Source: Escherichia phage Cyrano
Direction: 5' to 3' (one strand)
DNA length: 64,000 nucleotides
Sequence record: OV696614
The notes below the pieces were generated by a model. It was given only the letters and a program-made list of their open reading frames with translations. It searched no databases and was not told where the DNA came from. The position numbers and the translations under genes are program-made. Below are positions 2,716-52,681 of this stretch, in pieces (the first letter of the stretch is position 1; each line of letters starts with the position of its first letter).

Positions 2716-2790
2716 CAAGTGCCGATAAAATAAGTAGATGATTACTTATCTTTCTGTAAGAATACTTTCATCTGTTAGCTAGGAGTTTGT

Positions 2791-3573
2791 ATGAAAGACG
2801 AAATTCAGAAATTAGCCTGCGACATCATTGATAAAACTGGTTTAGAAATCAGCGAGAGCAATCGGCTAGACATCATTGAAAAAGCCGTAAAAACAGCAAT
2901 GGATCATATCGCCACTCGTTTGGTCGAGATCCCGCTACCGGGGCTACCTTATCTGAAGGTTAAGTTACACGTATGGGGTGAACCTTCTTGTGCACGGCGT
3001 TCTGCATTAGTTGTTTTTATTAGCAAAGAAAACCCGATCAGTCTTAAAGTGCAGGTTGGGGCATGGATGGATGGCAAAGCGATCTACACAAATACCGTTT
3101 TTTGTGCGTCAAATGACAGTATTATTGAAGAGGCTATTCAAGAATCACTTCTAACTATGCATAGCTTAGTTTTGCTGGAAGACAAGCAAAACTACGAAGA
3201 GTACTTACGGTCGATAAAAGGTGAGAGAACATTGTCACTTAAAGCCGATTTCGTTACCCCGACAAACCTGTTGGAAGTCTTGCTTAATAAAGGGGCTAAT
3301 GATGCTGTAAACCTAATCAGGGAGAGCGAATATTCGACTCTTTGGGACATGTGCAAAAGCCAGTTGGATCTTGTGCATATCATTGTTGATGCGGGTAAGG
3401 CGTGTGATGGCGTAATGGCGGAATTTGCTGGGAAGGTGGTCAGGATTGCTAACGAATTACCGATGATAGAGCAAGAGGCTAAATCATACGCCACCAATCA
3501 TGTCACAGAGCTTCTTGCCCCCTATCGCTTAGAAAGCAATCAGCGCAAGATGATTAGCTGGGGAAGTTGGTAA
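2791..3573 (+). CDS. hypothetical protein
   Basis: 260-aa ORF with AGGAG RBS upstream; no recognised motifs. Confidence 0.45.
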   Translation: MKDEIQKLACDIIDKTGLEISESNRLDIIEKAVKTAMDHIATRLVEIPLPGLPYLKVKLHVWGEPSCARRSALVVFISKENPISLKVQVGAWMDGKAIYTNTVFCASNDSIIEEAIQESLLTMHSLVLLEDKQNYEEYLRSIKGERTLSLKADFVTPTNLLEVLLNKGANDAVNLIRESEYSTLWDMCKSQLDLVHIIVDAGKACDGVMAEFAGKVVRIANELPMIEQEAKSYATNHVTELLAPYRLESNQRKMISWGSW

Positions 3574-3628
3574 TCTCTCAGTGTGTCGTTTTTTACGCAA
3601 AGAATGATAGGTAAGTACAAGATTATTT

Positions 3629-4111
3629 GTGGCGGTGGTTGTGAAAGCTGATTTGTCAAAAATCCCCTCTATTTCAGGAAATAATGGTTATTCACTTCGT
3701 TGTGAGGAAGTAAAGATAAACGGTGAGTCGGCATATTGCAGCTACTCCGTTTGCCAGCACACCATTCTTGCCTTCAAAGAAAACCGTCTTCCTCGAACTT
3801 CATTCCAGTCGTGCGCAACCGCTATCAAAGCAGGCAAATGCAAGGCGTTAAAAATGATGGTTGAAGAGATTCGTAAAGGAGAATCTCTGTATTTCGAAGA
3901 TATGACCGCACTCATTAAGGAGGTTGAAGAACGGAATAAACAAGCCAGAACTATAAAACGAAAACGTGACAGTGTAACGATTAATAGCATGGTTAAGAAG
4001 AGCGCCACATCACAAACAGCGATCACTGACGTGTATGCGGCGTTGCTTGAAGAAACAACAAAAGAAACACATGAGCAAATCGATCAACATATGGAGGCAA
4101 AACAACAATGA
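3629..4111 (+). CDS. hypothetical protein (start uncertain)
   Basis: 160-aa ORF from a GTG; basic C-terminal half; true start may be an internal ATG. Confidence 0.3.
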   Translation: MAVVVKADLSKIPSISGNNGYSLRCEEVKINGESAYCSYSVCQHTILAFKENRLPRTSFQSCATAIKAGKCKALKMMVEEIRKGESLYFEDMTALIKEVEERNKQARTIKRKRDSVTINSMVKKSATSQTAITDVYAALLEETTKETHEQIDQHMEAKQQ

Positions 4112-6250: not shown

Positions 6251-6272
6251 GATAAGTATTTACTTACTTATC
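6251..6272. repeat. Intergenic palindrome family (GATAGGTAAGT..ACTTACCTATC-like)
   Basis: gataagtatttacttacttatc just after the stop at 6241. Confidence 0.4.
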
Positions 6273-7095: not shown

Positions 7096-7097
7096 AT

Positions 7098-9089: not shown

Positions 9090-10193
9090 ATGAAAAATAG
9101 CTTTGACAGAGCACGCGCTGCGGAGAACACCTCAAAAGAGGCGATTGAGTATCTCGAAAGAGCATCTCAAATGCAGGCCGTTATGATCTCCCAGGTCAGC
9201 AATGACATGAGATTCTCGGACGCATTCATGTTATTCACTCGCTTATCTCTGCTGATAACAAGACGTCGGCCAGAGATCGCTGTTCATTGTATTTTGATAC
9301 ATGTTTTGCCGCACATTGCCGATGTAAAAGTAAGTGATATTAATAGGTTCATGGTGAACCAACTGGTCAACCCACTAATACTGGATGGCAAAATTGTTAT
9401 GGGTCGCCGCGTTTTCTCTCTGATGAAGCAGTTCCTCAGCTGGTGCGCCTTCCAGGGGATGATCGACGTGTCACCGTTAAACGATATGTCACTTAACAAA
9501 GTTGCCGGTGGCGCAAAGCCCACACCTCGCGAGCGGAAGCTAACCGACGCAGAGGTATGGGTGTTCTGGAATATATGGGACTACTTCAATGTGTGTGCTG
9601 GTACAAAATGGGCGGCCAGGCTATGTCTTGTATCCGCAAGACGACCTGACGAAGTACTGCGGGCTAAAAAAAGTGAGTTCAACCTCCAGCGTGGGGTTTG
9701 GAATCAAGGCAAGAGAAACAAATCAGCCCGTGAGCATTCTCTGCCTTTAAGCACATTAATGCGCACATGCATTGAAGAGTTATTCGAATATGGTAAAGGC
9801 AGCCAGTGGCTTGTGCCTTCGAATAAAAAAATCGGGAAAGATCTTCCGATGTCTAAAGTGGCAATAGCCCAGGCATTACGCCGTATCCTGGAACGACCAG
9901 AACTGATGGAGCTTGAGCCATTTACACCACGAGATTTGCGTCGTACTGCGCGTAGTTACTTCCCAGCATTAGGCATAAGCCAGGAGGTATCACGTAAAAT
10001 CATGAACCACAGTCTTGAGGGGATAGATCGGGTCTACGACCGGCACGATTATATGGACGAGATGCGAGACGCCTTAGAAAGTTTCTCGACGTACATCGCA
10101 TCAATCGTAGAGCAACCGGATTTAGACGAAATTGACCACAAATTTAAGGGAGATCGTCTATCAACAGAGCTTATTCGTGTAAATTTTTCATAG
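9090..10193 (+). CDS. tyrosine recombinase / integrase (P4-like)
   Basis: C-terminal catalytic region PRDLRRTARS..KIMNHSLEGIDRVYDRHDY (R, H-x-x-R-like, terminal Tyr). Confidence 0.7.
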   Translation: MKNSFDRARAAENTSKEAIEYLERASQMQAVMISQVSNDMRFSDAFMLFTRLSLLITRRRPEIAVHCILIHVLPHIADVKVSDINRFMVNQLVNPLILDGKIVMGRRVFSLMKQFLSWCAFQGMIDVSPLNDMSLNKVAGGAKPTPRERKLTDAEVWVFWNIWDYFNVCAGTKWAARLCLVSARRPDEVLRAKKSEFNLQRGVWNQGKRNKSAREHSLPLSTLMRTCIEELFEYGKGSQWLVPSNKKIGKDLPMSKVAIAQALRRILERPELMELEPFTPRDLRRTARSYFPALGISQEVSRKIMNHSLEGIDRVYDRHDYMDEMRDALESFSTYIASIVEQPDLDEIDHKFKGDRLSTELIRVNFS

Positions 10194-10574
10194 AGACTTT
10201 ATGGCCTCAACAACCTTTTGTGATGCGCCTTTCTCTTTACCGAATCGCTCGTTATATGCAGCAAGAACCTGTTTTTCGTCCTCGTTAAGAGGAGCAGTGC
10301 CTTCTTTGTATAAAAATGCTGCGAGTTCGGGTTGGCGTTCTTCCAGCACCATCATCATAAGACGACTTGGCTCAATGCCCAGTGCCAGCGCCAGCGGACG
10401 AACCTTATCGATAGGCAAAGGAATTTTGCCGCTTTTAATTAAAGAAAGGTTGTTGGCGTTTTTATACCCAATTGTTTTGGCTATCTGGGCCTGGCTCATA
10501 GGTGAGGATTCAATCAACCCTGCGATAAAAGCAGCGTAGCGACTTTCTATAAATTCAATCTTGTTATCAGACAT
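10188..10574 (-). CDS. XRE-family helix-turn-helix transcriptional regulator
   Basis: 128 aa; HTH MSQAQIAKTIGYKNANNLSLIKSGK; divergent from downstream genes. Confidence 0.7.
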   Translation of the reverse strand: MSDNKIEFIESRYAAFIAGLIESSPMSQAQIAKTIGYKNANNLSLIKSGKIPLPIDKVRPLALALGIEPSRLMMMVLEERQPELAAFLYKEGTAPLNEDEKQVLAAYNERFGKEKGASQKVVEAIKSL

Positions 10575-10606
10575 GGTTACAACCTTTGCGCGTTCAATTC
10601 TCTCTG

Positions 10607-10620
10607 GTAAGTGCTTACCG
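10607..10620. promoter_or_regulatory. Palindrome GGTAAGTGCTTACC, candidate operator
   Basis: Perfect 6-2-6 inverted repeat about 35 nt upstream of the HTH regulator start; shares core with the recurrent intergenic palindrome. Confidence 0.4.
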
Positions 10621-10825
10621 ATATTACATCAAAGGTTAGGGTTGTAAAGCTATTATCATTTTTTTCGATAGGCACTTAAAAGACCGGTTAAAGGCCATTG
10701 CACGGAGAAAAATTAGCCCAAAACAGGTAAGAAAATCAACTTGCATATGATATGAATGTATTCAGTATTGATATAAATTTTAGTAGTATTCCTTACCATA
10801 GTATAAGTTAGAATGGATTGATTGA

Positions 10826-11038
10826 ATGAACACCACTATTTCCAGCCTAATCGCTCTTGAGATCGGACACGTACAGAAATTAGTTGATGAGTGTGTAGCT
10901 GACATCCTCACCGATCTACCGAATGAGCAGATTCAGGTTGGTGTGAATGACACAACTGGATTTATATTCGAACTTAACAACAAACGCTTCACGCTTCTCA
11001 ATACCGGCTCCGGGTCTTTAGCCGTCAGAATCTGTTAA
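10826..11038 (+). CDS. hypothetical small protein
   Basis: 70-aa ORF in divergent intergenic region; weak support. Confidence 0.25.
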   Translation: MNTTISSLIALEIGHVQKLVDECVADILTDLPNEQIQVGVNDTTGFIFELNNKRFTLLNTGSGSLAVRIC

Positions 11039-11136
11039 CCCCTCTTCTCCCTGCGCGAATGGCTTAGTTCCCTGTTCGCGCAGTGCTACATTAAACACAC
11101 TAGTAAATAATTTGTTTTCATAACAAAGGATTAGCC

Positions 11137-13261: not shown

Positions 13262-13284
13262 GATAAGTAACCACTTACGATAGA
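13262..13284. repeat. Intergenic palindrome family
   Basis: gataagtaaccacttacgatag just after the vWA gene stop. Confidence 0.35.
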
Positions 13285-13340
13285 TAATGATATATTTATA
13301 TAAGAAGTTGAACGCTCATTAGAAAACAAAGGAAAAACGC

Positions 13341-14756: not shown

Positions 14757-17700
14757 ATGAAAGCACTGATGGTTCGAACTGACTTCTCACTTGGGGAGTC
14801 GGCTCTAAAAGCAGAAAACGCGGTGAAGATTGCCAGAGAAGCTGGCTACACCGCTGTAATTTCAGCAGATAGCATGAATATTGCGAGTGTTATTCCACTA
14901 CAACGTGCCGCTGGTGACGACATGGCGGTTATTTGTGGTGTGAAACTAAATATCGTTGATGATCCCACATACGAGCACCGGGCTAAACTTGCTAAAGAAT
15001 CTATGAGATGTATGGAATCATTAGAGCGGGGACGTAACTACTCGTTTACCGCTCTAATTAAAAATGAGCAAGGATATCGCGACATCTGCGAACTAATGAC
15101 GGCGGCCAACACACGAGAACAGTTCTACTTTGTACCGCGTCTCTCGCTCGAACAGTTGGTTTCTACATATGCCAAAGGCAACATCATCCTGCTTACTTCC
15201 GACATCGGTAGCGTGTTCCAACGCAACGATTTTGCAAAAATCATAAGCACACTGATTACAGCGGGTGGAAAAGACAACTTCTATAGTGTGGTTTATCCGC
15301 ACCCTACCCCATTCTACGACCAGATTAACGTCCGGGCGATGAAAGTCGCCAGCGCATTGAAAATAGAGCCAGTGGCGTTCTATCCCGCTTATTACGAATC
15401 GATCGACGATGCAGACATTAAAGACATTGCGCACATGGTTACGAACAACATCAAAATCGACCAGCCGCATCGTCTGCGTATCCCCCACCAGCGAGATAAC
15501 GCCATCAATGGTCGTCGCCATCTCCTTGAGGCGCTTAAAGCCTTCTCCGTTCGCATGGATGTGCCGGTAACAGCTGCAATGGCCTCAACAACGCAGGACT
15601 CCATTATCGATGCCTGCACATGGCGCTGGCATGAATTGCCACCAGCACTGCCCAAGATGGCAGACGACGAACCTGCAACGCTGATGAAACTGGCTGTTGC
15701 AGGGCTGCGTAAACGTCTTACCACAAAAGAGTTTGGATACACACCACCTGCTTCTGAGAACAGGGTTTATGTTGAGCGGCTAAAGTACGAAATGGACACG
15801 CTGACTCGCCTGGGATTCTGTGGTTACTTCCTGATGGTACGCGATCTGATGAATCACAGCCGTGAAACTGGCATTCCTGTCGGGCCTGGTCGTGGTTCCT
15901 CTGCCGGTTCTCTGGTGGCGTGGTGCATAGGCATAACCAACGTCGACCCAATCCGTCACGGTCTTCTGTTTGAGCGTTTCATCAACCCTGAGCGTCTCGA
16001 CTTGCCGGATGCGGACTTGGACTTCAGCCAGGCACGTCGCCATGAGGTGATCGAGTATCTGAATGAACGCTACGGCGAAGATTACGTTGCAGGCATTCCG
16101 AACTTCACCTATCTGGGCGCGGCATCTGCACTACGTGACACCGCTCGTATTTATGGTGTGGAGTCCGCAGATATGGCGGTATCAAAAGAACTGAAGAACG
16201 TCGAGGATGATAGCCTTCCATTGGAAGAGCTGCGCGAACAACTGGCAAGTCTCGACAAATACGCAACAAAATATCCTGATGCATTCAATGCAGCCTGCAA
16301 GTTACAAAGCCTTATGCGTGGCTTTGGTAGACATGCGGCAGGGATGATCGTAGCAGGTGTTCCTCTGACAGAACGTACACCGGTTGAGCGCCGTGGTGAC
16401 GCGCGTTGTATCGCATTTGACAAGCGTTACTGCGAGGCTATGGGCCTAATTAAGCTGGACGTGCTTGGCCTGGCAACTCTCGATTTGCTCGATAGTGCAA
16501 AACGCTACATCAAAGAGAGTACCGGGGAAGACATCAATCTCGACGCTATCCCACTGGACGATCGCAAGGTTCTGGATGGGTTCGCTGCAGGGTACACGCA
16601 GGGCGTATTCCAGCTGGAGTCCGGCCCCATGCGTAAGTTGCTTAAAGATCTGGGCGGTGGCATCGAGCCAATGAGCTTCAAGACCGTTGTCGCCACGACC
16701 GCACTCTTCCGACCAGGCCCGATCCAATCCGGCATGTTGGACGACTATGTCTCCGTGGCCAAAGGCTTCATGGCTCCACATTCAATTCATCCGCGTCTTG
16801 AGGAAGTCACCCGGGAGACTAATGGTGTTTTGCTCTATCAGGAACAAATCATGCAAAGTTCCCGAGTACTTGCCGGGTTCTCTATGGCCGAAGCAGACGC
16901 TCTGCGTTCCGCTATCGGTAAAAAGAACATGGATAAGATGAAAGCGATCGGCAGCGATTTTGTAGAACGAGCACAAGCAGGCTGGGTGACACTGTCACTC
17001 AAAAATGGAGGTACTGTAGAGGTTCACAAACACGCAAAACTGGATTGCTCAGACGGTAAGCGTAGAAGCTACAGCGAGGCTATTAGTGACGGCATAGACT
17101 ACGTGGAGATCGTCTCTGAACAAGAAGGTCTCAGTAAGGAAAAAGCCCAAGAAATATGGGACGCCTTTGAGAAGTTCGGTGGATATGCCTTCAACAAATC
17201 ACACAGTGTTGCTTATTCTTTAATCAGTTATCAGTCTATGTGGCTAAAGACGCACTACCCTGCTGAGTTCTTCGCAGCTGCGCTCACCATTCTGGGCGAG
17301 GATAAGCATCAGGGGCTGGTGAAGGATGCGCTGACCTATGGCATTCGCGTATTGCCACCAGACGTTAATGTGTCATCTAACCGAATTGAGATCCGCACAC
17401 TCGAAGACGGCAGTCAGGCACTGTATGCGCCATTCTCTGCTGTGAAAGGCTGTTCTGAAAATGGTTGTCAGGCAATTATGCGTGCGCGTGAGAAAGTTGG
17501 TGGCAAATTCGAGTCAGTGGCACAATTCGATGAAGCGGTCGAGAAGCGTGCATGTAACAGTCGTGTACGCGAGTCGCTTCATAAAGTAGGGGCTTTTGCG
17601 TCAATTGAGCCAGGCAGTCTGCCAGCAACTGATCCTGAACGACTGCGCGACCAGGCTGAGCTGATGGGCAATCTCATCATTGACGCTGTTAAAGCATCAC

Positions 17701-18263
17701 GTCCGTTCGAAATGAATCCTAAGCGTTCTGCCGAAATCAACGTACTCATGACACGTATGGCGGCTGAAATGGGCTTGGGTGAGGAGTTGATACGCCCGAC
17801 TATTGGTATTAAACCCAAAATCATGATCATTCTGGACAATGCGAACGGCAATGACGCTCGTACCGGCTACTTCATGGAGAACGGATACGACGACTTTAAG
17901 GCAAAACTACTGACAGTTGGAGATCTGCGCATGGGCGATCTTTATGTCACGGGTGTTTGTAAGAAGGTTAAGGACAAAGAGAAAGACTATACCAAAGACG
18001 AGATAGGCCAGTTCACAGACTTTATGCGGGAAGAAATTAATCTTGTACGACCAACCTACATTTTGACGTGTGGTAGTCGTTCAACCGCACTATTTAACAA
18101 TAAGAGTAAACCATCAGATCTGATTGGTCGTAAGGAGTACTTCCCAGAGCTTGATGCAACCGTCTTCTACGGATTTAACCCGAATATCCTGTACTTCCGA
18201 CCGGAAGAAGGAGAGCGACTGGAGGCCATTCTGGCTGATATCGCGGAGACAATAAATAAGTAA
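14757..18263 (+). CDS. dnaE: DNA polymerase III alpha subunit (DnaE-type, family C)
   Basis: 1168 aa; GPGRGSSAGSLVAWCIGIT palm motif; N-terminal PHP-like region lacks the usual His motif. Confidence 0.85.
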   Translation: MKALMVRTDFSLGESALKAENAVKIAREAGYTAVISADSMNIASVIPLQRAAGDDMAVICGVKLNIVDDPTYEHRAKLAKESMRCMESLERGRNYSFTALIKNEQGYRDICELMTAANTREQFYFVPRLSLEQLVSTYAKGNIILLTSDIGSVFQRNDFAKIISTLITAGGKDNFYSVVYPHPTPFYDQINVRAMKVASALKIEPVAFYPAYYESIDDADIKDIAHMVTNNIKIDQPHRLRIPHQRDNAINGRRHLLEALKAFSVRMDVPVTAAMASTTQDSIIDACTWRWHELPPALPKMADDEPATLMKLAVAGLRKRLTTKEFGYTPPASENRVYVERLKYEMDTLTRLGFCGYFLMVRDLMNHSRETGIPVGPGRGSSAGSLVAWCIGITNVDPIRHGLLFERFINPERLDLPDADLDFSQARRHEVIEYLNERYGEDYVAGIPNFTYLGAASALRDTARIYGVESADMAVSKELKNVEDDSLPLEELREQLASLDKYATKYPDAFNAACKLQSLMRGFGRHAAGMIVAGVPLTERTPVERRGDARCIAFDKRYCEAMGLIKLDVLGLATLDLLDSAKRYIKESTGEDINLDAIPLDDRKVLDGFAAGYTQGVFQLESGPMRKLLKDLGGGIEPMSFKTVVATTALFRPGPIQSGMLDDYVSVAKGFMAPHSIHPRLEEVTRETNGVLLYQEQIMQSSRVLAGFSMAEADALRSAIGKKNMDKMKAIGSDFVERAQAGWVTLSLKNGGTVEVHKHAKLDCSDGKRRSYSEAISDGIDYVEIVSEQEGLSKEKAQEIWDAFEKFGGYAFNKSHSVAYSLISYQSMWLKTHYPAEFFAAALTILGEDKHQGLVKDALTYGIRVLPPDVNVSSNRIEIRTLEDGSQALYAPFSAVKGCSENGCQAIMRAREKVGGKFESVAQFDEAVEKRACNSRVRESLHKVGAFASIEPGSLPATDPERLRDQAELMGNLIIDAVKASRPFEMNPKRSAEINVLMTRMAAEMGLGEELIRPTIGIKPKIMIILDNANGNDARTGYFMENGYDDFKAKLLTVGDLRMGDLYVTGVCKKVKDKEKDYTKDEIGQFTDFMREEINLVRPTYILTCGSRSTALFNNKSKPSDLIGRKEYFPELDATVFYGFNPNILYFRPEEGERLEAILADIAETINK

Positions 18264-18269
18264 TAAAGA

Positions 18270-18295
18270 AAACCCGCCTGTTGGCGGGTTTATAA
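18270..18295 (+). terminator. Rho-independent terminator after dnaE-like gene
   Basis: aaacccgcctgttggcgggttt hairpin then T-rich tail. Confidence 0.7.
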
Positions 18296-18566
18296 AGAAT
18301 TATGGCGCTTGTTGAGGAAGTCACTCCTCTTACGCACTTTGTTTTGCCATGCCGGCAGTTAGCTTCTGCCTTTGACTATTCATGCGGCAACCCCGCATTT
18401 CGCCACAATGGGCAATTCACTTTTATGGAATAAACTGGCCGTTGTGTCGATTTAATTAGCATGGCCTTACCATGCTAATTTATTCAACTTGTACAATCCT
18501 ACAAATCTATCCACTCAGGCTTACACCGTCTTCGTTATTGTAGAAATGAGGATCATCAGCGTTGAA

Positions 18567-18782
18567 TCAGCTTAGAGCAACGACATTTGCTGCTGCTGGG
18601 CCTTTAGCACCATTCTCGATAGAGAATTCGACCTGCTGGCCTTCTTCCAAAGTGCGGAAATTATTACTCTGAATTGCCGAAAAATGTACAAAAACATCTT
18701 TACTGCCATCAGCAGGAGAAATAAAGCCAAAGCCTTTATCAGAGTTAAACCATTTTACTAAACCAGTCATTTTATTAGACAT
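18567..18782 (-). CDS. cold-shock protein, CspA family
   Basis: Start moved to internal ATG giving about 70 aa: [30 protein letters not shown] (RNP1/RNP2 motifs). Confidence 0.85.
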
Positions 18783-19111
18783 AGATATTACCTTCTTAAT
18801 TTTGTGAGCCACATAGTGCGGCGAGAATTTGATCTGTATAGATTGGGACTTACTTAGGCACTTAAGGAGGAGACTCACGAAGAAGGGAAATCAGAAGATA
18901 ACACTGAACTGAGACTGCTTTACTAAAACTGCTTACATAAGGTCTGTCTTGCAAACCAACGATGCTATTAACGCATACCCCTTCTTTTCATGCAACCTTT
19001 ATTTTTCAAAGATAACTAATTTTTGTCACCATTGGTTTAGTAAACGTTAACGAACCAGACGATGCCAGACACCTTTACAGAGAACAGATGCCCGCCAATT
19101 GGCGGGCATCA

Positions 19112-35902: not shown

Positions 35903-35947
35903 TAACATGGGCCACTATATTTAGTGGCCCTCTTTATTTGGTGATAC

Positions 35948-38263
35948 ATGATAAGCATCGTAAAACGTAACGGCCAAACAGAGCCGTTATCCGAAGAAAA
36001 ATACAACCGCGTCGTAATGTATGGCGTAGAAGGCATTCGTGGTGTAAGCGCATCCGCTGTAGCAATGGGAGCTGCGGCCAGCATTTTTGATGGGATTACC
36101 ACCAGCCAGTTGCATGAGGCTTTGGTTAAATCTGCCGCTGATTTGATCTCACCAGAAGCACCAAATTACTCACAGGTGGCTGCCCGCCTGAACATTTTTA
36201 AAATCCGCAAAGATGCCTTCGGTCGTTACGACTATCCGAACTTCTACCAACACATTGTCAAGAACGTTAACAAGGGCGTTTATGACAAGGATTTGCTGAC
36301 ACATTATTCGTTTGAAGAGATCGAAGAACTCGGCAATTACATTAAGCCGAAACGTGACGATCTTTTTGGCTATGCAGCTACGGTGCAGTTGCAAAGCAAA
36401 TACCTCGTTCAAAACCGTGTTACTGGTGAGATTCATGAGGGGCCGCAACATATCTATATGCTGGTAGGCATGTGTCTGTTCCAGAATTGGGAAGACGACT
36501 GCGCTGGCAAAACACGTATGGAGATGGTCAAAGGTTTCTATGACGTTACAAGTACGTTCAAACTGTCTCTGCCCACACCAATCATGGCCGGCGTCCGTAC
36601 TCCAACCCGTCAGTTCTCCAGTTGTGTGCTGATTGAGTCTGGCGATAGTCTGAAAGGGATTAGTGCAGCTTCAGCCGCAATTATCGACTACGTTTCACGT
36701 CGTGCTGGAATTGGTATTGGTTTTGGCCGTATCCGTGCGCTGGGCAGCGAGATCCGCAATGGTGAAGCCACCCATACTGGAGTTATTCCATTCCTGAAGC
36801 ATTTCCAGACGGCTGTTAAATCTTGTTCGCAAGGTGGTGTTCGTGGTGGCGCAGCAACAGCGTTTTACCCGATCTGGCATCTTGAAGTTGAAAGTCTGCT
36901 GGTGGTGAAAAATAACCGTGGTATTGATGAAAACCGCGTTCGCCATCTTGATTACGGCGTCATGAGTAACCGTCTAATGTACCGTCGACTCGTCAGAAGC
37001 GAGAACATCACTCTGTTCAGCCCGCATGATGTGCCTGATATGTACGAAGCCTTCTTCACAGACCAGGAGCTGTTTGAAAAGCTGTACCATAAATACGAAG
37101 CCGATGATTCAATTCGCAAGAAGTCAGTACCTGCCATTGAGCTGTTCTCATCTCTGATGCAGGAACGAGCGTCCACGGGCCGAATTTATATTGCGAACGT
37201 CGATCATATTAACGAGCATGGCGCTTTCATTCCCGCTCTTGCACCTGTTCGCCAGTCAAACCTGTGCATGGAGATCACTCTACCCACTCGTCCACTGGCA
37301 TTTACCGACGACCCGAACGGTGAGATCGCGCTATGCACTTTATCCGCTTTTAACCTCGGAGCCATCCGTTCACTGGAGTCTCTTAAAGAGGTGGCGTTCT
37401 ATGCCGTTGCTGCACTGGATTCGTTACTGGATTATCAAGACTATCCGATGGAGGCAGCCGAAGTGCCTGCCAAAGCTCGTCGTAGCTTGGGAATTGGTGT
37501 AACCAACTTTGCTTATTACCTGGCAAAGAATGGCGTTCGTTATTCTGATACCGCTGGCAATAAACTGGTGCATGAAACGTTCGAAGCTATCCAGTATTAC
37601 CTTCTTGATGCCAGCTGCCGACTTGCTGAAGCAAAAGGTGAGTGTGACTGGTTTGAGCAGACCAAGTACGCAATTGGTCAGTTGCCGATCGACCATTACC
37701 GTTCTTCATTAGACGAAAGTGGCGAAACCAACTTTGAGTTAAAGATGCCGTGGGAAGAACTGCGTGAACGTATTGCAAAATACGGCCTTCGCAACTCCAC
37801 ACTGACGGCACAAATGCCATGCGAGACTTCCAGCCAGATCACTAATTCCACCAACGGCATCGAACCGCCTCGTGGACCGGTGTCGGTGAAATCTTCTAAG
37901 GACGGCATCGTTAAGATGGTCGTGCCTGAGTTTGAAAAACTGAAGGAACAGTATGAATACCTGTGGGATATGCCGGACAACCGCGGCTATCTGACAAAGG
38001 TGGCGATCATCCAGAAGTTCTTTGACCAGGCTATTTCAGCCAATACCAACTATGACCCTTCTCGCTTTGAAGGCGATAAAGTCCCAATGATGACGCTACT
38101 GTCAGATTTGCTTCTCGCCTACAAGATGGGAGTTAAAACGCTTTACTACCACAACACCAGAGATGGGGCAGGAAAGCGTGATGACGACGAACCGCAGAAT
38201 CCACTGACGCAAGCTGTAGCCGTCGAGCCAGAAGATGAGTGCGACGGAGCCTGCAAAATCTGA
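35948..38263 (+). CDS. nrdA: Ribonucleoside-diphosphate reductase alpha subunit (class Ia)
   Basis: 771 aa; active-site block SNLCMEITLPT, C-terminal Cys pair ECDGAC; overall enterobacterial NrdA-like. Confidence 0.9.
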   Translation: MISIVKRNGQTEPLSEEKYNRVVMYGVEGIRGVSASAVAMGAAASIFDGITTSQLHEALVKSAADLISPEAPNYSQVAARLNIFKIRKDAFGRYDYPNFYQHIVKNVNKGVYDKDLLTHYSFEEIEELGNYIKPKRDDLFGYAATVQLQSKYLVQNRVTGEIHEGPQHIYMLVGMCLFQNWEDDCAGKTRMEMVKGFYDVTSTFKLSLPTPIMAGVRTPTRQFSSCVLIESGDSLKGISAASAAIIDYVSRRAGIGIGFGRIRALGSEIRNGEATHTGVIPFLKHFQTAVKSCSQGGVRGGAATAFYPIWHLEVESLLVVKNNRGIDENRVRHLDYGVMSNRLMYRRLVRSENITLFSPHDVPDMYEAFFTDQELFEKLYHKYEADDSIRKKSVPAIELFSSLMQERASTGRIYIANVDHINEHGAFIPALAPVRQSNLCMEITLPTRPLAFTDDPNGEIALCTLSAFNLGAIRSLESLKEVAFYAVAALDSLLDYQDYPMEAAEVPAKARRSLGIGVTNFAYYLAKNGVRYSDTAGNKLVHETFEAIQYYLLDASCRLAEAKGECDWFEQTKYAIGQLPIDHYRSSLDESGETNFELKMPWEELRERIAKYGLRNSTLTAQMPCETSSQITNSTNGIEPPRGPVSVKSSKDGIVKMVVPEFEKLKEQYEYLWDMPDNRGYLTKVAIIQKFFDQAISANTNYDPSRFEGDKVPMMTLLSDLLLAYKMGVKTLYYHNTRDGAGKRDDDEPQNPLTQAVAVEPEDECDGACKI

Positions 38264-38324
38264 CATATGGTGGGGGATATCCCCACCTTCTCTTTGATTT
38301 GTAAGCCTTGTTTAAACACATAAG

Positions 38325-38340
38325 ATAACAACTTGTTTAA
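38325..38340. promoter_or_regulatory. Palindromic motif AAACAA-N-TTGTTT
   Basis: ataacaacttgtttaa about 30 nt upstream of the nrdB start. Confidence 0.4.
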
Positions 38341-39589: not shown

Positions 39590-40459
39590 ATGAACTTTAC
39601 CAAACTGACTGACCACCTGAAACTTGCCACCGATCGACTCATTGGATTTAAGCCAGAACCATATGAGTTGCATGAAGGTCATGGTGTAGCTACTGAAAGT
39701 ATTTACAAGATGGTCGATCAGTTTCATGAACTCTTCCAGCATCCGAGACGCGTTATGCCGACACCAGAGCTGCTTCGTCTCCGTGCAAGCCTGATTCATG
39801 AAGAAGCTGTAGTGGAAGGTATTCCAGCTGCAATGAATGGGGATATTGAGCAACTGCTGGATGCAATGGCCGACTTTTTATACGTTGGTGTTGGTACGAT
39901 GGTCGCCATCAAAGGTGGTATTTCTACCGGCATGACCTATTACACGCAGGAACAGAGCATTGATCGCTTTATGCAGACAATTTTTGTGCCTGGTAACACT
40001 GTTTTCGATGATATGGCAATGCCATTTCAGGAAGCTCGTGAGGCGTCATGTATGCTCGAAGAGCTGGCAGATAAACTTGAGAACAAGACTGTTAAGGATT
40101 CTGAGCTGATTCAGGAACTGCGCCGTGTCATGAACAAAATCTATGTGGCGTGCATGATGACCTATCGACTGGCTGATTTCCTCGGTATCAATGTAGTCGA
40201 GCTGGTTGGCGAAATTCATCGGTCTAACATGACAAAATTATGGCCTGCTGATGTTGAGGAACGTCGCCAGGCTGTGGCCAACTGCAAATACGACTCTTCA
40301 GATCTGGGATTCCGCCATGCTGATGGCACCGATAAGATGATCGGTTTTCGAATTTCCGATGGAAAGATTCTGAAGTCTCCAACCTATAGTGATGTCGATT
40401 TATCCTCCTTTGTTGAGCAAGCTAAAGCCTCAGCAATGTACGGAATGATCAAAAAATAA
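39590..40459 (+). CDS. hypothetical protein, possibly MazG-like NTP pyrophosphohydrolase
   Basis: 289 aa; acidic helical motif LIHEEAVVEGIPAAMNGDIEQLLDAMADFLYV resembles the MazG EExxE..D pattern; tentative. Confidence 0.4.
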   Translation: MNFTKLTDHLKLATDRLIGFKPEPYELHEGHGVATESIYKMVDQFHELFQHPRRVMPTPELLRLRASLIHEEAVVEGIPAAMNGDIEQLLDAMADFLYVGVGTMVAIKGGISTGMTYYTQEQSIDRFMQTIFVPGNTVFDDMAMPFQEAREASCMLEELADKLENKTVKDSELIQELRRVMNKIYVACMMTYRLADFLGINVVELVGEIHRSNMTKLWPADVEERRQAVANCKYDSSDLGFRHADGTDKMIGFRISDGKILKSPTYSDVDLSSFVEQAKASAMYGMIKK

Positions 40460-40629
40460 TTGTAGGTAGTTATCTATCTGTGTATATTTAACATGCGTAA
40501 TAAAACTCTGGAATGACTATTCGTTTTGGTGGCCTATGGCCACCATTTTTTTATCTGTCTGGTCTTGTTCTCTCAATGAATGTAAACTCACACGATGAAT
40601 AAGTAATTACTTATCTTTGTGAGGTTTTT

Positions 40630-42148: not shown

Positions 42149-42621
42149 AGATGATAGCTGCTGTTGGCCGTAACTATGAGATCGGCATAGCGAACGAACT
42201 GCCCTGGCGTTGTTCTACCGATCTGAAGCTATTTAAGAGACTCACCAAAAACGCCACTGTCGTTATGGGGCGTAAAACGATGGAAAGTCTCAAACGCCCT
42301 CTTCCAGAGCGTCATAACCTCGTTTTGACGCGCTCTCATGGCTTTGTACCAAATGGATTCTACCCTGCTGGTGTGGATGATGTGTTGCGATTACCAGAGC
42401 CTGTGTGGGTGATTGGCGGGGAACAAATTTACTCGCTATTCATGCCGCATGTTGAAGAGATTTGGCTCTCCCACATCGGCGTTGATGTACCAAACGCCGA
42501 TGCATTCTTCCCGGCAAGCATGATGCGTAACTTAGGCTTTGTGCCTGTTGAAACAGCTTATACCCAACGAGCCAGCGAGGAAGAGCCTGGCTTTTCGCAG
42601 ATCGTATACAGAAGGTCGTAA
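42145..42621 (+). CDS. Dihydrofolate reductase
   Basis: 158 aa; MIAAVGRNYEIG..LPW, VVMGRKT, VIGGEQIY motifs. Confidence 0.85.
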   Translation: MKMIAAVGRNYEIGIANELPWRCSTDLKLFKRLTKNATVVMGRKTMESLKRPLPERHNLVLTRSHGFVPNGFYPAGVDDVLRLPEPVWVIGGEQIYSLFMPHVEEIWLSHIGVDVPNADAFFPASMMRNLGFVPVETAYTQRASEEEPGFSQIVYRRS

Positions 42622-43265
42622 TGGATTACCGGATTGGGATCACTGGTGCTCAGGGCAGTGGGAAAACAACCCTGGCTAAATATATCGACAAACATTACGG
42701 AATCCCTTACGTGGATGCTGGTGTCGGAAGTTTGATGAGCCGCCTCGGTGTTCGAGTAGGTGAGTCTATGCCTCTATATGAGCGGCTTCAGATTCAAATG
42801 GAAATAGCAAAGCATATAGAGCTACTTACACGTGGTGTTGAAGGCTTTGTTATCGATCGCACACCTGCTGATGTTATGGCCTACACGTTGGATTTGGTCG
42901 GCCATACAAATGAAGATCGGTGTATTGAGTTAGCCCTCGATATCGAAAAGTTTTGCCACAAAACTGCTATTTCAAACTTTAACGCCATTGCTGGCCTACG
43001 CCCGGGGGTCGCTCTCTCAGAGCGAGATTACTTGCGATCACAACGAGCATCATTAGACCGTCTGTATGTCGCTCGTATTGATGCGTTGATGTGCGGGGAA
43101 CTGACAAAAATTCACCTGCATCCGCAAAGGGGAGATCTGCAAACCTTCGTCGTTTCCAACCGATATCGCACGGTTGAAGCAAGAGCCAGATCAGTGATGA
43201 GAATGCTAGATAACGCTGTAGAAAAGATAGAAAACCGGTTCTGTGGCCGAGTAACCGTTCATTAG
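42621..43265 (+). CDS. P-loop nucleotide kinase (dNMP kinase-like)
   Basis: 214 aa; Walker A GITGAQGSGKTT near N-terminus; sits in the nucleotide-metabolism cluster. Confidence 0.55.
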   Translation: MDYRIGITGAQGSGKTTLAKYIDKHYGIPYVDAGVGSLMSRLGVRVGESMPLYERLQIQMEIAKHIELLTRGVEGFVIDRTPADVMAYTLDLVGHTNEDRCIELALDIEKFCHKTAISNFNAIAGLRPGVALSERDYLRSQRASLDRLYVARIDALMCGELTKIHLHPQRGDLQTFVVSNRYRTVEARARSVMRMLDNAVEKIENRFCGRVTVH

Positions 43266-45435: not shown

Positions 45436-45456
45436 ATAGGTAATCACTTACCTATC
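45436..45456. repeat. Intergenic palindrome family (best copy)
   Basis: ataggtaatcacttacctatc, near-perfect inverted repeat just upstream of the methyltransferase gene. Confidence 0.45.
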
Positions 45457-46060: not shown

Positions 46061-46222
46061 TTTGTTCTGGCGTCTGTAATTAGCCTGCTTCTGTATATAT
46101 AAATAACTACATATTAATTATTAATATACGGAAGCAGGCTGTTTTATATCAGAGACTCCCAGACCTGAACACCACTACAGAATCCACTAGAACCCCTTCC
46201 CAGACGCTTTAAAATCGATTTT

Positions 46223-46477
46223 ATGAACCACTTTAAGGAAACCAACATGTCATACCCGACTAATGTCGTTGCGCTCGTAGAGAGCGATTTTCTGGCCCAG
46301 GCTCGTGAAATGATGAAAGATCGTGAGCAGGCTTTCAACTTGTACGAGTGGGCAATTAAGTGCTTGCATCTTGGCGAGCATCGCGAACTTGTTGAACAGC
46401 TTTTAGGTGAGTTGATCAATGAGGTGTTTGCCTTGAATGTTCAACTACATGGTCGAGAAAATAATCAATCACAATGA
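46223..46477 (+). CDS. hypothetical protein
   Basis: 84-aa ORF. Confidence 0.4.
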   Translation: MNHFKETNMSYPTNVVALVESDFLAQAREMMKDREQAFNLYEWAIKCLHLGEHRELVEQLLGELINEVFALNVQLHGRENNQSQ

Positions 46478-47060
46478 TAGATAAGTACAAACTATTTATA
46501 AAGTGAATTGTAAGTGCTAAGATCTGATAGTTTCCAGTCGTAGACTGGAGACTCGACCTGATGGGTGGGGGTAAGCGTCACTGGCGTCAGGTTTAAAAAA
46601 GCTCACTACCAGCGTAGAACCGGCACCGTTTAGGGGTTGGGGAAGGGGGAACCAAAGTGGGCAGAGACAAGGGTCACTTTATGATTGTCGAGTCTGGAGT
46701 GTTTCGAGAGGTTGAATCCAGTACTCCCCTTCATAAAGTGTGGGAAGATCTCGGTTCTGGGGTGCTGTCATCCATAACTTCCCAAGCCTAAGCTGGCAGT
46801 AGACTTAGGTCATAACTTTTCAGGTTATGAAACGACCAGGTTGGTGAGGAAATTTTGTACTCACCTCCCTGGGAGAGTATTACCTGAAAAGACAACCTCT
46901 CACTTCGTTCGAGGTGAACTTCACTCACTTCGTTCGTTCAGTTCAGGTTTATAAAAACCTGTTCTGGGAAGTAATTTGTTTATTTTAATAATTATTAACA
47001 CGCACGCGTGTGCGCACGCGCGAGGAAAAAATCGGCGCGGCGCTTGATTCAGGAGTTTAT

Positions 47061-47654
47061 ATGACGACGAAGACACCAGCCCGATCGCAAGCAAAAACTC
47101 GCAAAAAAGCCAAAAACAAAAATTCTCCCCGCACCAATCCCACAACGTCTGTCGTAGAGTTCAATCCCCAGCTTAAAACCGTGAAAATCTTCAGTGATGG
47201 CTCTTGCCTTAAAAATCCGGGTGGCCCGGGCGGTTACGGTATAGTTCTCCAGTATCGTGGTGAGGAACGCGAGTTCTCAGATGGTTTTCATAGCACCACC
47301 AATAACCGCATGGAGATGATGGGGGCACTTATCGGGCTGGAGCGTTTGAAATATCCATGCAACGTTATTTTGCACTCTGATAGCCAGTATCTGAAAAACG
47401 GCATGACACTGTGGATGAAATGGTGGAAACGCAATGGATGGATGACTTCTGACAAAAAACCGGTAAAGAATGTTGATCTGTGGAAGCGTCTGGATGAGGC
47501 CGCAAGTCGACATAATGTTCGCTGGAAGTGGGTTAAAGGTCACGCCGGGCATCGTGAAAATGAAATATGTGATCGACTCGCGAAGATCGCAGCTTTTTCA
47601 GCAGCAGATATGCCTCACAAGAAAGATATTGGTTTTGTTTATAACAAGTGGTAA
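47061..47654 (+). CDS. Ribonuclease HI
   Basis: Start moved to internal ATG behind AGGAG RBS; basic N-terminal tail then RNase HI blocks [29 protein letters not shown]. Confidence 0.85.
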
Positions 47655-47671
47655 GTAAGTGTTTACCTATC
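47651..47671. repeat. Intergenic palindrome family
   Basis: gtaagtaagtgtttacctatc just after the RNase H stop. Confidence 0.35.
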
Positions 47672-47799
47672 ATTTTAAATCATGTATCTTATCAGCGTCA
47701 GGATGACAATGTGTCGGTAAGACACAGTTCCAGGATGGAACGAGAAAGGCGGCTGGCAATCGCCAGCCGCAACTCTTTCTGACACTGGATGGAGTCCAC

Positions 47800-48546: not shown

Positions 48547-48561
48547 TAAAACAACTTGTTT
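48547..48561. promoter_or_regulatory. Palindromic motif AAACAA-N-TTGTTT
   Basis: aaaacaacttgtttt about 25 nt upstream of the 48586 start. Confidence 0.4.
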
Positions 48562-49276: not shown

Positions 49277-49292
49277 AAAACAACTTGTTTAA
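49277..49292. promoter_or_regulatory. Palindromic motif AAACAA-N-TTGTTT
   Basis: aaaacaacttgtttaa upstream of the 49309 start. Confidence 0.4.
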
Positions 49293-50214: not shown

Positions 50215-50216
50215 TT

Positions 50217-50831
50217 ATGTTCGGGATGTCAATTACTCAATCAGATGGAAGTTTGTGGATGAGTCCAGAATTTACTCCGCAAAATCTGATTAATAAAGGG
50301 ACAATGTCTACATCTAAAGGTTCTGTTTTTCAAACATCAATCCCATCAAACAAATCATGTTTTTTTTTCATAAAAAGCAGTAATAAGGCGAACATGATGT
50401 TTATTCATGAGCATAGTAACGGATACAATGCTCTCAGATTGCATCAGGTAAATGGTAGCCCCGGAACAATAACAGTTTATGCTTTTTCTGATATGGTGTT
50501 ACCACATTCTGGCTATGGCATTGCCATGTATAACAGCGCAGGCGCAATGGTGTATCACGGTGAGATGATGCCCCTTGATGCGAAACTTATCACTATTTCT
50601 GACCCTCAATTTACAATAGATATGGGGTATCCATGTGCGGTAATGCCTGCTATGGTTGGAGTATATAACTATAGACGAACCGATTACGACAGACCTGTCT
50701 ATGTAACAATGACAGGTGCAACTGGAAACCAAGTATATAACGGTAAATGGTATTCCGGTAATGTCACATGGGATATTAAGAAGATTTATACAAACAAAAT
50801 TCTGGTGATAAATACCTCCAAGTATGATTAG
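50217..50831 (+). CDS. hypothetical protein (AT-rich cassette)
   Basis: Start moved to ATG 3 nt after the upstream stop; about 204 aa; beta-rich Tyr/Asn/Thr composition. Confidence 0.45.
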   Translation: MFGMSITQSDGSLWMSPEFTPQNLINKGTMSTSKGSVFQTSIPSNKSCFFFIKSSNKANMMFIHEHSNGYNALRLHQVNGSPGTITVYAFSDMVLPHSGYGIAMYNSAGAMVYHGEMMPLDAKLITISDPQFTIDMGYPCAVMPAMVGVYNYRRTDYDRPVYVTMTGATGNQVYNGKWYSGNVTWDIKKIYTNKILVINTSKYD

Positions 50832-50934
50832 CCAATGCCTTTATTTGAAGGATTGCCTGTTTATTTCTATTTAGTACCTTTTCATTTTTGAAATAATTGC
50901 ACCATTAAACAAATCACTTCTTAATGGTGCAATT

Positions 50935-52620
50935 ATGAATACAGCCCTTTCCATCATCGACGATGCCAACTCAAACACTGCTATCGACTATCGGCAGGAA
51001 ATGAACGTCATCCACGAAATTGTGGCCGAGTGCGAGAAAGAGATCGCTTTCATGTACCAGGTTCACGACTTCGTTTATGGCGACGAACGCCACAACATGA
51101 TTAATCGCCTGCTGCAACTGAACCACCGACCAGATGAAGAACGCTCACGTTTGAATCGAGCTTGGCTGGATAAAGTCGATCTGGAATGGGTGAAACAGAA
51201 TATTTGGGCCGAGTACTGGAGGAAGGTCACGGACATGACTAACGTTTTGCTGATCATGCCAGCTTCCCGTCGAGATGAGTGGCGCGAGCAGTTTATAGAG
51301 GGCAAACAGGAAGTCATCAAAACTGACAGAACCGGCTACCAGATGAAGGTTAAAGAGTTCGTTGGTGTACCGGAGTTCAAAGCAGAAACGGTCATACCCA
51401 CGATGCTTAATTTGCTGAATGACAGGCACAAATATCTCTCTGAGCGCGTGTATGGCTTGTTTAAGGCGCTGAGTCCTGCGCACAAGACAAATAAGACAAA
51501 CGGTTTCAGCGAGCGGCTGATAATCGCTGACTGCATTTCTGATTTCTGGCGGGACAGCGTTAGCGTGAACTATCGCAAAGAGGACTACATCGACGATCTG
51601 CGTGTCTTGCTTCATTTCTTCGCGCACAAAGAATTTATTACCATCAACCGCACTGCTGAGGTGCTATCAGCTGCGTATCGGGCAAACGACTGCCAGACCG
51701 GTGACTGGATGAACGTCGATGGAAATCTGATGCGCGTGAAGATGTTCAAGAACGGCAACGTTCACTTTGAAATACATCCTGACGTGGCCTGGAAGTTGAA
51801 TGAGGTGCTGGCTTACAGTATGCCTGCTGCAATTCCCGCGCCATGCCGAACTGCGCCAAAAACACGGGCACCAAAGCAGTTCGGGTTAATCCAGAAGACG
51901 ATCTCCGTGCCGGTTCGCACTGCGCTTCGTGACGGGCGATTGAGCAAAGACAAAGGCGTATGGTACTTCTCTGATTCAGCTCTCCAGAAGTCGCAGGTGG
52001 AAGAGCTTGAGCGCACACTGAGCTTCATTGGCGGCGTGCAGGAGAAAAAGCACTGGCAGTTCCCGTATGACATCGGCCATACGCTAAATACGATTGTGGC
52101 TACCGGTTTAATACCGGATACAAAATCACACCAGTTCTACCCTACCCCACGCTTGATTGCTGAGTACGTTGCCAGAGCCACTGAATTGAAGCCTGGTGAG
52201 AAGCTGCTTGAGCCTCAAGCCGGACGTGGGGATCTTCTGGCCTATATTAACGCCGATCTGGAAGATGTTACCTGCATAGAAATCGCACCTCTCTTCGCTG
52301 ATATCCTGCGTGGAAAAGGGTATACGAACACGATTTGCTGCGACTTCATAAAGTGGTCTGAGGACAACGCAGGTTATCAGTTCGACAAAATCGTTATGAA
52401 CCCGCCGTACTCGCTTGGTCGTCATAGAGAGCACACGCTGGCTGCGCTGGGGCATCTGAAAGTCGGCGGGCGTCTTGTAGCAGTATTGCCGGGCACTGCG
52501 CCAATCCTGAGCTGGATGACGATGGATAATTACGTTTATGCCAAAGGGAAGTCGTTTACCAACGAGTTTGAAGATACCGGGATCACAGTCAGCGTATACG
52601 TTTTCAAACGCGTTAAATGA
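50935..52620 (+). CDS. N6-adenine DNA methyltransferase with large N-terminal domain
   Basis: 561 aa; C-terminal SAM-binding LEPQAGRGDL and catalytic MNPPYS; N-terminal about 380 aa unassigned. Confidence 0.65.
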   Translation: MNTALSIIDDANSNTAIDYRQEMNVIHEIVAECEKEIAFMYQVHDFVYGDERHNMINRLLQLNHRPDEERSRLNRAWLDKVDLEWVKQNIWAEYWRKVTDMTNVLLIMPASRRDEWREQFIEGKQEVIKTDRTGYQMKVKEFVGVPEFKAETVIPTMLNLLNDRHKYLSERVYGLFKALSPAHKTNKTNGFSERLIIADCISDFWRDSVSVNYRKEDYIDDLRVLLHFFAHKEFITINRTAEVLSAAYRANDCQTGDWMNVDGNLMRVKMFKNGNVHFEIHPDVAWKLNEVLAYSMPAAIPAPCRTAPKTRAPKQFGLIQKTISVPVRTALRDGRLSKDKGVWYFSDSALQKSQVEELERTLSFIGGVQEKKHWQFPYDIGHTLNTIVATGLIPDTKSHQFYPTPRLIAEYVARATELKPGEKLLEPQAGRGDLLAYINADLEDVTCIEIAPLFADILRGKGYTNTICCDFIKWSEDNAGYQFDKIVMNPPYSLGRHREHTLAALGHLKVGGRLVAVLPGTAPILSWMTMDNYVYAKGKSFTNEFEDTGITVSVYVFKRVK

Positions 52621-52681
52621 TAGGTAAATGCTTACTTAATTTGTGTAAGAATGTAGTAACTAAACGATAAGAGAAAAACAC

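Follow-up and report, generated by a model that had tools for sequence, protein, structure and literature searches.

Intergenic palindromes conserved in SSU5/pHCM2-type phage-plasmids, most likely the operators of an element-encoded repressor

We analysed a family of palindromes, here called family A, in a 64,000-nt stretch of DNA of Escherichia phage Cyrano (sequence record OV696614; hereafter the window). The window is part of an Escherichia coli phage-plasmid of the SSU5/pHCM2 type. Family-A palindromes are 20–22 bp long and read (G)ATARGTAAGT·ACTTACYTAT(C), with the dot marking the centre. They are a real, strongly conserved family of protein-binding DNA sites, which most likely forms a genome-wide operator set for a repressor encoded by the element itself. 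Shown directly are the motif itself and how far it exceeds chance, together with its placement between genes, its symmetry, its conservation across lineages and the absence of covariation in RNA; the binding protein and the mechanism are inferred from these observations.

The window showed 98% identity to Escherichia phage PhiR41_1, 99% to many E. coli plasmids and ~77% to Salmonella phage SSU5 and to Klebsiella phage-plasmids. It is 89% coding and consists mostly of plus-strand lytic genes, among them those for a DnaB-like helicase, a primase, a ligase, CobT/CobS-like proteins, DnaE, a gp32-like single-stranded DNA-binding protein (SSB) and exonucleases, followed by NrdAB, ThyA, dihydrofolate reductase, RNase H and methyltransferases.

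Sequence, placement and conservation of the palindromes

The existence of the palindrome family was confirmed by counts against shuffled sequence. The pattern ATARGTAANNNNTTACYTAT matched the window 11 times at up to two mismatches and 14 times at up to three, compared with means of 0.03 and 0.53 in Markov shuffles, and the exact sequence TAAGTNNNNACTTA was found three times against 0.05 expected. A palindromic weight matrix, iterated to the consensus aatGATAAGTAAGTACTTACTTATCatt (an example sequence of this type is ATAGGTAAGTACTTACCTAT), detected 17 sites in the window; together with a core-only site at 10603–10622 this gives 18. On the complete PhiR41_1 genome the matrix found 24 sites and none in 20 shuffles, and complete genomes carried 24–30 sites each, again with none in shuffles. 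An earlier note, made from the letters of the window, had listed at least 14 copies. All 14 listed positions do carry a full or partial copy, with the registers of those at 20651, 25449, 31196 and 40598 shifted by 3–8 nt, while sites at 40458, 46099 and 46477 had been omitted.

The centres of 17 of the 18 sites lie outside modelled open reading frames (ORFs; binomial P = 6e-16). The earlier note had placed the copies just after stop codons and 20–60 nt before the next start. The first part holds for most sites, which lie −8 to 41 nt from the upstream stop codon and overlap it in four cases, but the distance to the following start codon ranges from 1 to 220 nt. The sites in the window, none of which has an orientation, are as follows.

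2730–2749: ATAAGTAGATGATTACTTAT; primase stop codon 14 nt before, next start codon 41 nt after, extended −10-like box TGTAAGAAT downstream; SSU5 orthologue at 38178 with the same box downstream
3607–3626: good left arm ATAGGTAAGT, degenerate right arm; found with the weight matrix
6252–6271: ATAAGTATTTACTTACTTAT; stop codon 10 nt before, then TGTATAAGAT; SSU5 counterpart at 41773
10603–10622: core-only site, GGTAAGTGCTTACC at 10606–10619, at the start predicted for transcription from the XRE-regulator promoter
11932: weak match inside an ORF, found with the weight matrix
13263–13299: composite of two overlapping registers (13263 and 13280), GATAAGTAACCACTTAC and ATAGATAATGATATATTTAT, after the CobT-like gene
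20659–20678: stop codon 13 nt before; gene for the gp32-like SSB downstream
25446–25465: directly after an intrinsic terminator (25410–25429); next start codon 32 nt on
27399–27418: ATAAGTTAGTATCTACCTAT; found with both the pattern and the weight matrix
31199–31218: upstream of an SbcD-like exonuclease gene, followed by TGTATATTA (TGTCATAAT in SSU5)
35883–35902: stop codon 8 nt before, then an intrinsic terminator (35909–35930) and the nrdA start at 35948
40458–40477: weaker copy overlapping the stop codon of a pyrophosphohydrolase gene; SSU5 counterpart at 72357
40595–40614: thyA start codon 15 nt after, too tight for a downstream promoter
45436–45455: best copy, ATAGGTAATCACTTACCTAT; methyltransferase start codon 11 nt after
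46099–46118: degenerate copy at the centre of a ~55-bp inverted repeat, CCTGCTTC..GAAGCAGG
46477–46496: overlaps the stop codon of a small ORF (46223–46477)
47651–47670: overlaps the RNase H stop codon
52620–52639: overlaps the stop codon of a DUF4942 gene, followed by TGTAAGAAT

Family-A sites lie in short gaps at the ends of genes of the lytic cycle, namely those for replication, nucleotide metabolism, head, tail and lysis, and in complete genomes the sites span the early region as well as the head, tail and lysis region. The ~22-kb accessory/maintenance block of complete genomes had no family-A site except one weak conserved copy, and none was found upstream of either repA or parA. Within the window, no site scored above 8.1 between 52.7 and 64 kb, a part which includes the mrp-metG segment, from which the copies had already been said to be absent.

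The information in the motif is symmetric: both arms and both flanks (AAWR...YWTT) contribute equally, no directional −10 element is attached, and an orientation bias of the kind known from mycobacteriophage L5 was not seen in motif or flanks. Such symmetry is the pattern expected of a site for a dimeric or higher-order DNA-binding protein.

Comparison with related phage-plasmid genomes, which the earlier note had proposed as a check, revealed the motif at equivalent gene junctions in Salmonella, Klebsiella, Yersinia pestis and Acinetobacter relatives. SSU5 has 25 family-A sites at matching junctions, and the Klebsiella phage MK422451 and Y. pestis pFra/pMT1 also carry the motif at matching junctions. 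The divergent Klebsiella plasmid NZ_CP101792 (DnaB 70% identical) has ~26 sites reading ATAAGTAAnnATTTACTTAT, and the A. baumannii phage-plasmid p5759_1 (DnaB 37% identical) has ~30 sites reading ATTAGTAAGCGCTTACTAAT. Junctions with a site in all four lineages compared include that between the TerL stop and the portal start, that after the major capsid gene, where stop codon, site and intrinsic terminator follow each other, and that between the RNase H-like gene and nrdA. At the last of these, site 35883 and its terminator are shared with SSU5 and both Klebsiella lineages; only Acinetobacter keeps the site without a terminator after it. In IMG/VR, the exact perfect palindrome was found on SSU5-like contigs only. 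As judged from these sequences the conservation is unusually deep, extending from Enterobacteriaceae to Moraxellaceae. No description of the family-A motif for SSU5-type elements, or of a link to the nucleoid-occlusion factor SlmA, was found in the searchable literature.

DNA sites, RNA structure and promoters

The leading idea of the earlier note was that the copies act as RNA hairpins, that is, as RNase processing sites, 3′-end stabilisers or factor-dependent terminators. The location of the sites close behind stop codons and the 7–10 bp stems possible for some copies are in line with this explanation; nevertheless, we regard it as extremely improbable. Among 51 distinct sites pooled from three genomes, deviations of the arms from the consensus were one-sided in 184 cases and compensated in 21. 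Position pairs of the R/Y type were Watson-Crick in 27, G·U in 9 and A·C in 10 cases, compared with ~23, 12 and 11 if the arms were independent. The equal frequency of A·C and G·U means that pairing constrains neither strand. Between orthologous sites one arm is kept and the other drifts; the thyA site, for example, has the sequence ATGAATAAGTAATTACTTAT in the window, but ATAAATAATTGATTACTTAT in PhiR41_1 and ATATGTATGTACTTACTTAT in SSU5. Across lineages it is the sequence that is kept and not the pairing.

The copies had also been thought to form a stable stem-loop each, which was not confirmed. Folding of 26-nt RNAs gave minimum free energies from 0.0 to −8.3 kcal/mol, with only 4–8 of the 10 arm positions paired and no structure at all (0.0 kcal/mol) for three sites. 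RNase III needs roughly 20 bp of double-stranded RNA, and the stems fall far below that length. The traits of intrinsic terminators are absent at family-A sites: their stems are A+U-rich and lack a U-tract, and the true terminators are separate hairpins nearby. Given independently varying arms, equally frequent A·C and G·U mismatches and weak hairpins, the family-A palindrome is to be read as a protein-binding DNA site and not as an RNA element. Among the roles previously considered for the copies, processing sites and factor-dependent terminators or attenuators are not supported, and the evidence favours operators of an element repressor: the motif is a symmetric site of the dimer type, its position relative to predicted promoters varies, genes expected to be active in the plasmid state lack it, and its core lies at the start site of the XRE promoter.

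Four sites, at 2730, 6252, 31199 and 52620, are followed after 6–9 nt by an extended −10-like box (TGTAAGAAT, TGTATAAGA, TGTATATT or TGTCATAAT) that is conserved in SSU5 and Klebsiella. There the centre of the palindrome lies at about −31, over the −35/spacer region. These four loci, and the presence of sites ahead of most lytic transcription units, would fit activator-dependent promoter elements in which the palindrome replaces the −35 box for a lytic-phase factor, as in P1 Lpa late or T4 MotA middle promoters. We consider such elements very unlikely. The position of the palindrome relative to predicted promoters varies from about −31 to +1/+10, being about +1 both at 45436 (predicted promoter TTGCCA-17-(TG)AAAAAT) and at the XRE promoter. 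A fixed spacing to a −10 hexamer was not found for the family, and a promoter element of the Lpa or MotA kind was rejected for this reason. Downstream of the palindrome no directional information was detected beyond the symmetric flank, and the palindrome itself is directionless, yet nearly all genes run in one direction. At least five sites of the window (3607, 13280 and 27399 by annotation, 40595 and 45436) end 1–15 nt before a start codon, so that no −10 box plus leader can fit, and in the late region what comes directly after a site is an intrinsic terminator or the ribosome-binding site of the portal gene. Variable placement of this kind argues for repressor operators rather than activator sites. 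The palindrome end TATCAT was likewise discarded as a −10 hexamer, as its flank is symmetric and has no −35 or TG element alongside.

Intrinsic terminators adjoining family-A sites, or sites of a second palindrome family (family B, described below), split the genome into many short units, with examples at 25410–25465, 35883–35948, 38269–38338, 40527–40614 and 47651–47770. In the series of stop codon, family-A site, terminator and nrdA start the space behind the terminator is too short for a promoter, and nrdA must therefore be transcribed via read-through. A further arrangement is a ~190-bp regulatory region found at two loci per genome, at ~46070–46225 of the window and at 25095–25290 of PhiR41_1, just left of the window start. 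It is composed of a long inverted repeat, with CCTGCTTCCGTATATAT and ATATATACGGAAGCAGG on either side of a degenerate family-A palindrome, followed by a T-run, ~100 nt and a −10-like box. At one of the two loci the region lies ahead of the first gene in the helicase-primase operon. It may function as a regulatory site, as an origin-like hairpin or as a terminator for both directions.

Candidate binding proteins

The element encodes an XRE-type regulator next to an integrase gene, with the following features.

9090–10193, plus strand: integrase gene beside the XRE regulator
10188–10574, minus strand: XRE-type helix-turn-helix regulator of 128 aa, matching HTH_19 and phrog_8; homologue WP_001282576.1
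10621–10648, minus strand: predicted sigma-70 promoter of the regulator gene, TTTACA-16-TAATAT, kept in four lineages
10748–10789: tandem 21-nt repeat TGATATGAATGTATTCAGTAT / TGATATAAATTTTAGTAGTAT, between the regulator gene and a small ORF (10826–11038)

In our proposal, this protein serves as prophage repressor and has the family-A sites as its targets. That the palindromes are operators for a dimeric sequence-specific protein of the phage-plasmid, most likely the XRE regulator, appears to us to have about an even chance of being correct, both the binder and its repressive effect being deduced from sequence comparison. The regulator gene is divergent from a small ORF and lies on the strand opposite to the lytic genes, which is the layout of an immunity region. 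Its homologues were found in 994 plasmids of every lineage, including those of Yersinia and Acinetobacter; the module of regulator and integrase is present in every lineage and lacking only in the virulent phage SSU5. Regulator and motif occur together across plasmids of all lineages. The core GTAAG-NN-CTTAC at the start site of the XRE promoter is kept in E. coli, Salmonella pHCM2-like, Klebsiella and Y. pestis plasmids, and family-A half-sites upstream of the XRE gene are also present in the divergent Klebsiella and Acinetobacter lineages. A motif core at a regulator's own transcription start is the layout commonly seen in autoregulation. Residues N39, N41, S44, I46 and G49 of the recognition helix are invariant in the five lineages compared.

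According to this proposal, the regulator would occupy all sites in the plasmid-prophage state. A site over the −35/spacer region or the start site of a promoter would block initiation, and a site between co-directional genes or just before a terminator would act as a roadblock to read-through. All sites jointly would silence the whole lytic gene set, in the manner of the numerous C1 operators in P1 or the L5 'stoperators'. The accessory/maintenance block, which is expected to be on in the plasmid-prophage state, is the part of the genome free of sites but for its one weak copy.

Several points weigh against the XRE regulator as the binder. The site at its promoter lacks the outer ATA/TAT that is near-invariant elsewhere. 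The immunity-like region contains the different tandem repeat, TGATATGAATGTATTCAGTAT in two copies, which could be the true XRE operator; its first copy includes a near-palindrome, TGAATGTATTCA, and the two copies may serve the immunity switch as an operator pair of their own. SSU5 has lost the XRE gene, yet 25 good sites persist in it. Identity to its nearest relatives with an XRE gene is only ~93% in that region, so that some decay would be expected if the sites had become functionless. The recognition helix of the Klebsiella XRE protein differs at three positions and the motif is unchanged. Sites are kept between a stop codon and an intrinsic terminator, where no need for repression is obvious. 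Finally, a phage protein of the ParB/Spo0J/Noc type is equally conserved and is retained in SSU5.

This ParB-like protein, one of two paralogues encoded at the head of the late operon outside the window, is the second candidate and may itself bind the sites. It would load at dispersed palindromes, as with KorB of RK2 or Noc, and silence or organise the genome in the lytic cycle, which we regard as doubtful but worth weighing. The protein (PhiR41 42383–43063) has a ParB_N domain and aligns to Noc and, over residues 23–171, to Spo0J (1vz0), a range that should include the DNA-binding helix-turn-helix; no helix-turn-helix domain was detected by Pfam, however. It is present in all lineages, including Acinetobacter at 36–43% identity, and its retention in the virulent SSU5 would explain why that phage keeps intact sites. 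In E. coli and Acinetobacter the start codon of its gene is preceded, at a distance of 17 nt, by a family-A site, of which SSU5 has a weak copy. KorB and Noc typically act at dispersed palindromes, but known ParB-family sites measure 13–16 bp and family-A sites 20–22 bp, and the conserved core site at the XRE promoter is left unexplained.

A second palindrome family, family B, fits a ParB-type protein at least equally well. Its consensus AAACAAnTTGTTT is 13 bp long (6+1+6), a format resembling the operators of KorB, and 11 copies were found in the window at up to one mismatch against 0.46 expected.

Family-B copies, first part: 80–92, 11105–11117, 26595–26607, 38326–38338, 48549–48561 and 49278–49290
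Family-B copies, second part: 53818–53830, 61114–61126, 61165–61177, 62605–62617 and 63801–63813

These copies belong to a conserved cassette, ..gcCTTTTcTTaTTGcGATAATAAcaCCAacAAGA-AAACAAnTTGTTT-aaGGAg..ATG, which reads as a putative extended −10 promoter with the palindrome at about +8 to +20, followed by a ribosome-binding site. A further copy, placed behind a terminator hairpin, lies ~45 nt upstream in some cassettes. The accessory region, which lacks family A, is rich in family-B copies, and the family is also found ahead of dnaB, nrdB, parA and the genes for the CobT-like protein and the small terminase subunit.

In enterobacterial hosts the family-A sites could instead be bound by host SlmA, on an array far denser than that of the chromosome. 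Such an array could provide host-supplied repression of the lytic genes or a division block upon DNA amplification. We judge this unlikely. The published binding rule requires G, T, A and G at positions 1, 2, 4 and 5, any purine at position 3 (dissociation constants of about 60 vs 50 nM) and any pyrimidine at position 6 (PMC3020112). The family-A core GTAAGT·ACTTAC agrees with this rule at all 12 positions. The 20-bp motif aligns with the consensus of the SlmA-binding sites (SBSs), AAGTAAGTGAGCGCTCACTTACGT, and with the right half of SBS17, ATTTACTTAC (PMC4423959), and thereby shares with the E. coli SBSs the 12-bp core, much of the 20-bp extended site and the tandem xTAA-GTAA half-site structure. 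Among the 12-mers of the window, one fits the rule perfectly, namely the core-only site at 10603–10622, and eight with one mismatch, compared with 0.06 and 1.6 in shuffles; on the Acinetobacter plasmid, the number of perfect fits is 11. The repression by SlmA of an SBS-bearing promoter, and the block of division by multicopy SBS plasmids at mild SlmA overproduction (PMC3573117), are further points in its favour. A phage-encoded TetR or SlmA paralogue as binder was rejected: none was found in the element by tblastn, with a SlmA query checked against PDB entry 3nxc, or in the annotation of the Prokaryotic Genome Annotation Pipeline (PGAP), a lack that counts in favour of the host protein.

The host range of the motif decides against SlmA as the binder of the whole family. 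A. baumannii has no SlmA orthologue (PMC7481262, PMC13060281), yet ~30 homologous palindromes are kept at the same junctions in its phage-plasmid, and SlmA cannot be the binder there. Furthermore, the phage sites have A-T-A outermost in 91–99% of cases, where the three SBS sequences compared have an outermost G. Chromosomal SBSs lie mostly inside genes and not at promoters, at about 1 per 100–200 kb, in contrast to the nearly all intergenic family-A sites at 1 per 4 kb. In enteric hosts SlmA may still cross-bind the sites. A ~108-kb phage-plasmid with ~25 sites and ~5 copies per cell would outnumber the chromosomal SlmA sites. Upon induction this could lead to a division block by activated SlmA spread through the cell, or to a titration of SlmA that couples derepression to copy number; we regard such a scenario as rather unlikely.

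Three further candidates were rejected. The first is the SSU5_054-type regulator (phrog_2620, 'excisionase and transcriptional regulator'; 19112–19711, minus strand). Together with a gene for a CspG-like cold-shock protein (18567–18878, minus strand) it forms a minus-strand island in the early region, which is absent from PhiR41_1, and PhiR41_1 retains all sites. The second is an FljA-like regulator as master repressor, encoded outside the window in the lysogeny-side block of PhiR41_1 (37192–37710, annotated as 'transcriptional regulator'; PF03614, Flag1_repress, the family of the phase-1 flagellin repressor, E = 1e-68). No family-A site lies near this gene, and the inverted repeats upstream of it, GTCTAC/GTAGAC, are of another kind; its family membership suggests a moron acting on host flagellin expression. 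Thirdly, core sites of a recombinase were discarded on the consideration that ~25 recombination sites per genome would be destructive and that the spacer geometry is wrong.

Neighbouring genes, comparable systems and biological meaning

Some neighbouring genes deserve mention in their own right. Pfam and PHROGs scans of ~50 proteins returned 'unknown function' for most of them. The genes mrp (apbC) and metG (57738–61029) are part of the phage-plasmid itself and not of flanking chromosome; they sit in a variable accessory block together with a gene for a UmuD-like S24 peptidase (57311–57700). The RecA-like gene at 23065–25404 encodes 779 aa, of which ~38% can be aligned to the SSU5 recombinase. 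Its counterpart in the PGAP annotation is labelled LAGLIDADG homing endonuclease, a hint that the gene holds an intein or endonuclease insertion. On the Acinetobacter plasmid p5759_1, a gene for a sigma-70 family sigma factor (17690–18355) lies between the MoxR/CobS-like ATPase gene and dnaE; at this position the enterobacterial elements have a 69-aa ORF only.

The closest functional analogues of family A would be the C1 operators of P1 and the L5 stoperators, or KorB and Noc sites if the ParB-like protein is the binder. C1 of P1 represses dispersed operators ahead of lytic operons and of its own gene. P1, an enterobacterial plasmid prophage like the present element, has 45 transcription units as cited in PMC10695390. 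Common to both systems would be one repressor acting at many dispersed operators before separate lytic operons and its own gene. The C1 operators differ in being 17 bp long and asymmetric, C1 is unrelated to XRE proteins, and family-A sites are found within the late structural operon and beside terminators as well. The stoperators, bound by the gp71 repressor, are likewise present in ~24–30 copies genome-wide, in early and late operons and nearly all in short intergenic gaps, often touching stop codons, and are believed to silence the prophage by blocking both elongation and initiation (PMC4319613, PMC9283540). They are 13 bp long, asymmetric, orientation-dependent and bound by a monomer, as opposed to the 20–22-bp palindromes of family A, which imply a dimer or higher oligomer; host and phage lineages are unrelated, and for family A a roadblock is only proposed. 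Because both C1 operators and stoperators are asymmetric and monomer-bound, family A would be a variant of this class and not a member.

The operators of KorB (OB, RK2) and the Noc sites of Bacillus are also dispersed palindromes at which a ParB-family protein acts on many promoters or marks the DNA, and the element encodes two ParB-like proteins. OB measures 13 bp and Noc sites 14–16 bp; in format the 13-bp family B is closer to OB. The 22-bp repeats of the T1-like phages T1 and Stevie, siphoviruses rich in intrinsic terminators, resemble family A in their copy number of 16–20, their mostly intergenic location and their lack of an assigned function (PMC4319613), but they are asymmetric, oriented with transcription and unrelated in sequence.

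Phage-plasmids of the SSU5/pHCM2 type are very common: ~800–1000 plasmid records in PLSDB matched the element, with E. coli, Klebsiella, Enterobacter, Salmonella Typhi (pHCM2-like) and Acinetobacter as hosts and with partial matches in Y. pestis (pMT1/pFra), and some of these plasmids carry resistance genes. To our knowledge, little is known on how the lytic genes of these elements stay silent or are switched on. With the motif family, regulatory sites can be mapped concretely and a few candidate regulators named, and a simple sequence signature is available that reaches from Enterobacteriaceae to Moraxellaceae. If SlmA also binds, control of the prophage would be linked to the checkpoint of cell division, and the array would amount to a DNA-encoded takeover of that host checkpoint by a mobile element. 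If the sites act as genome-wide roadblocks, the stoperator principle of mycobacteriophages would apply to Gram-negative phage-plasmids as well, in a form in which a dimer binds a palindrome.

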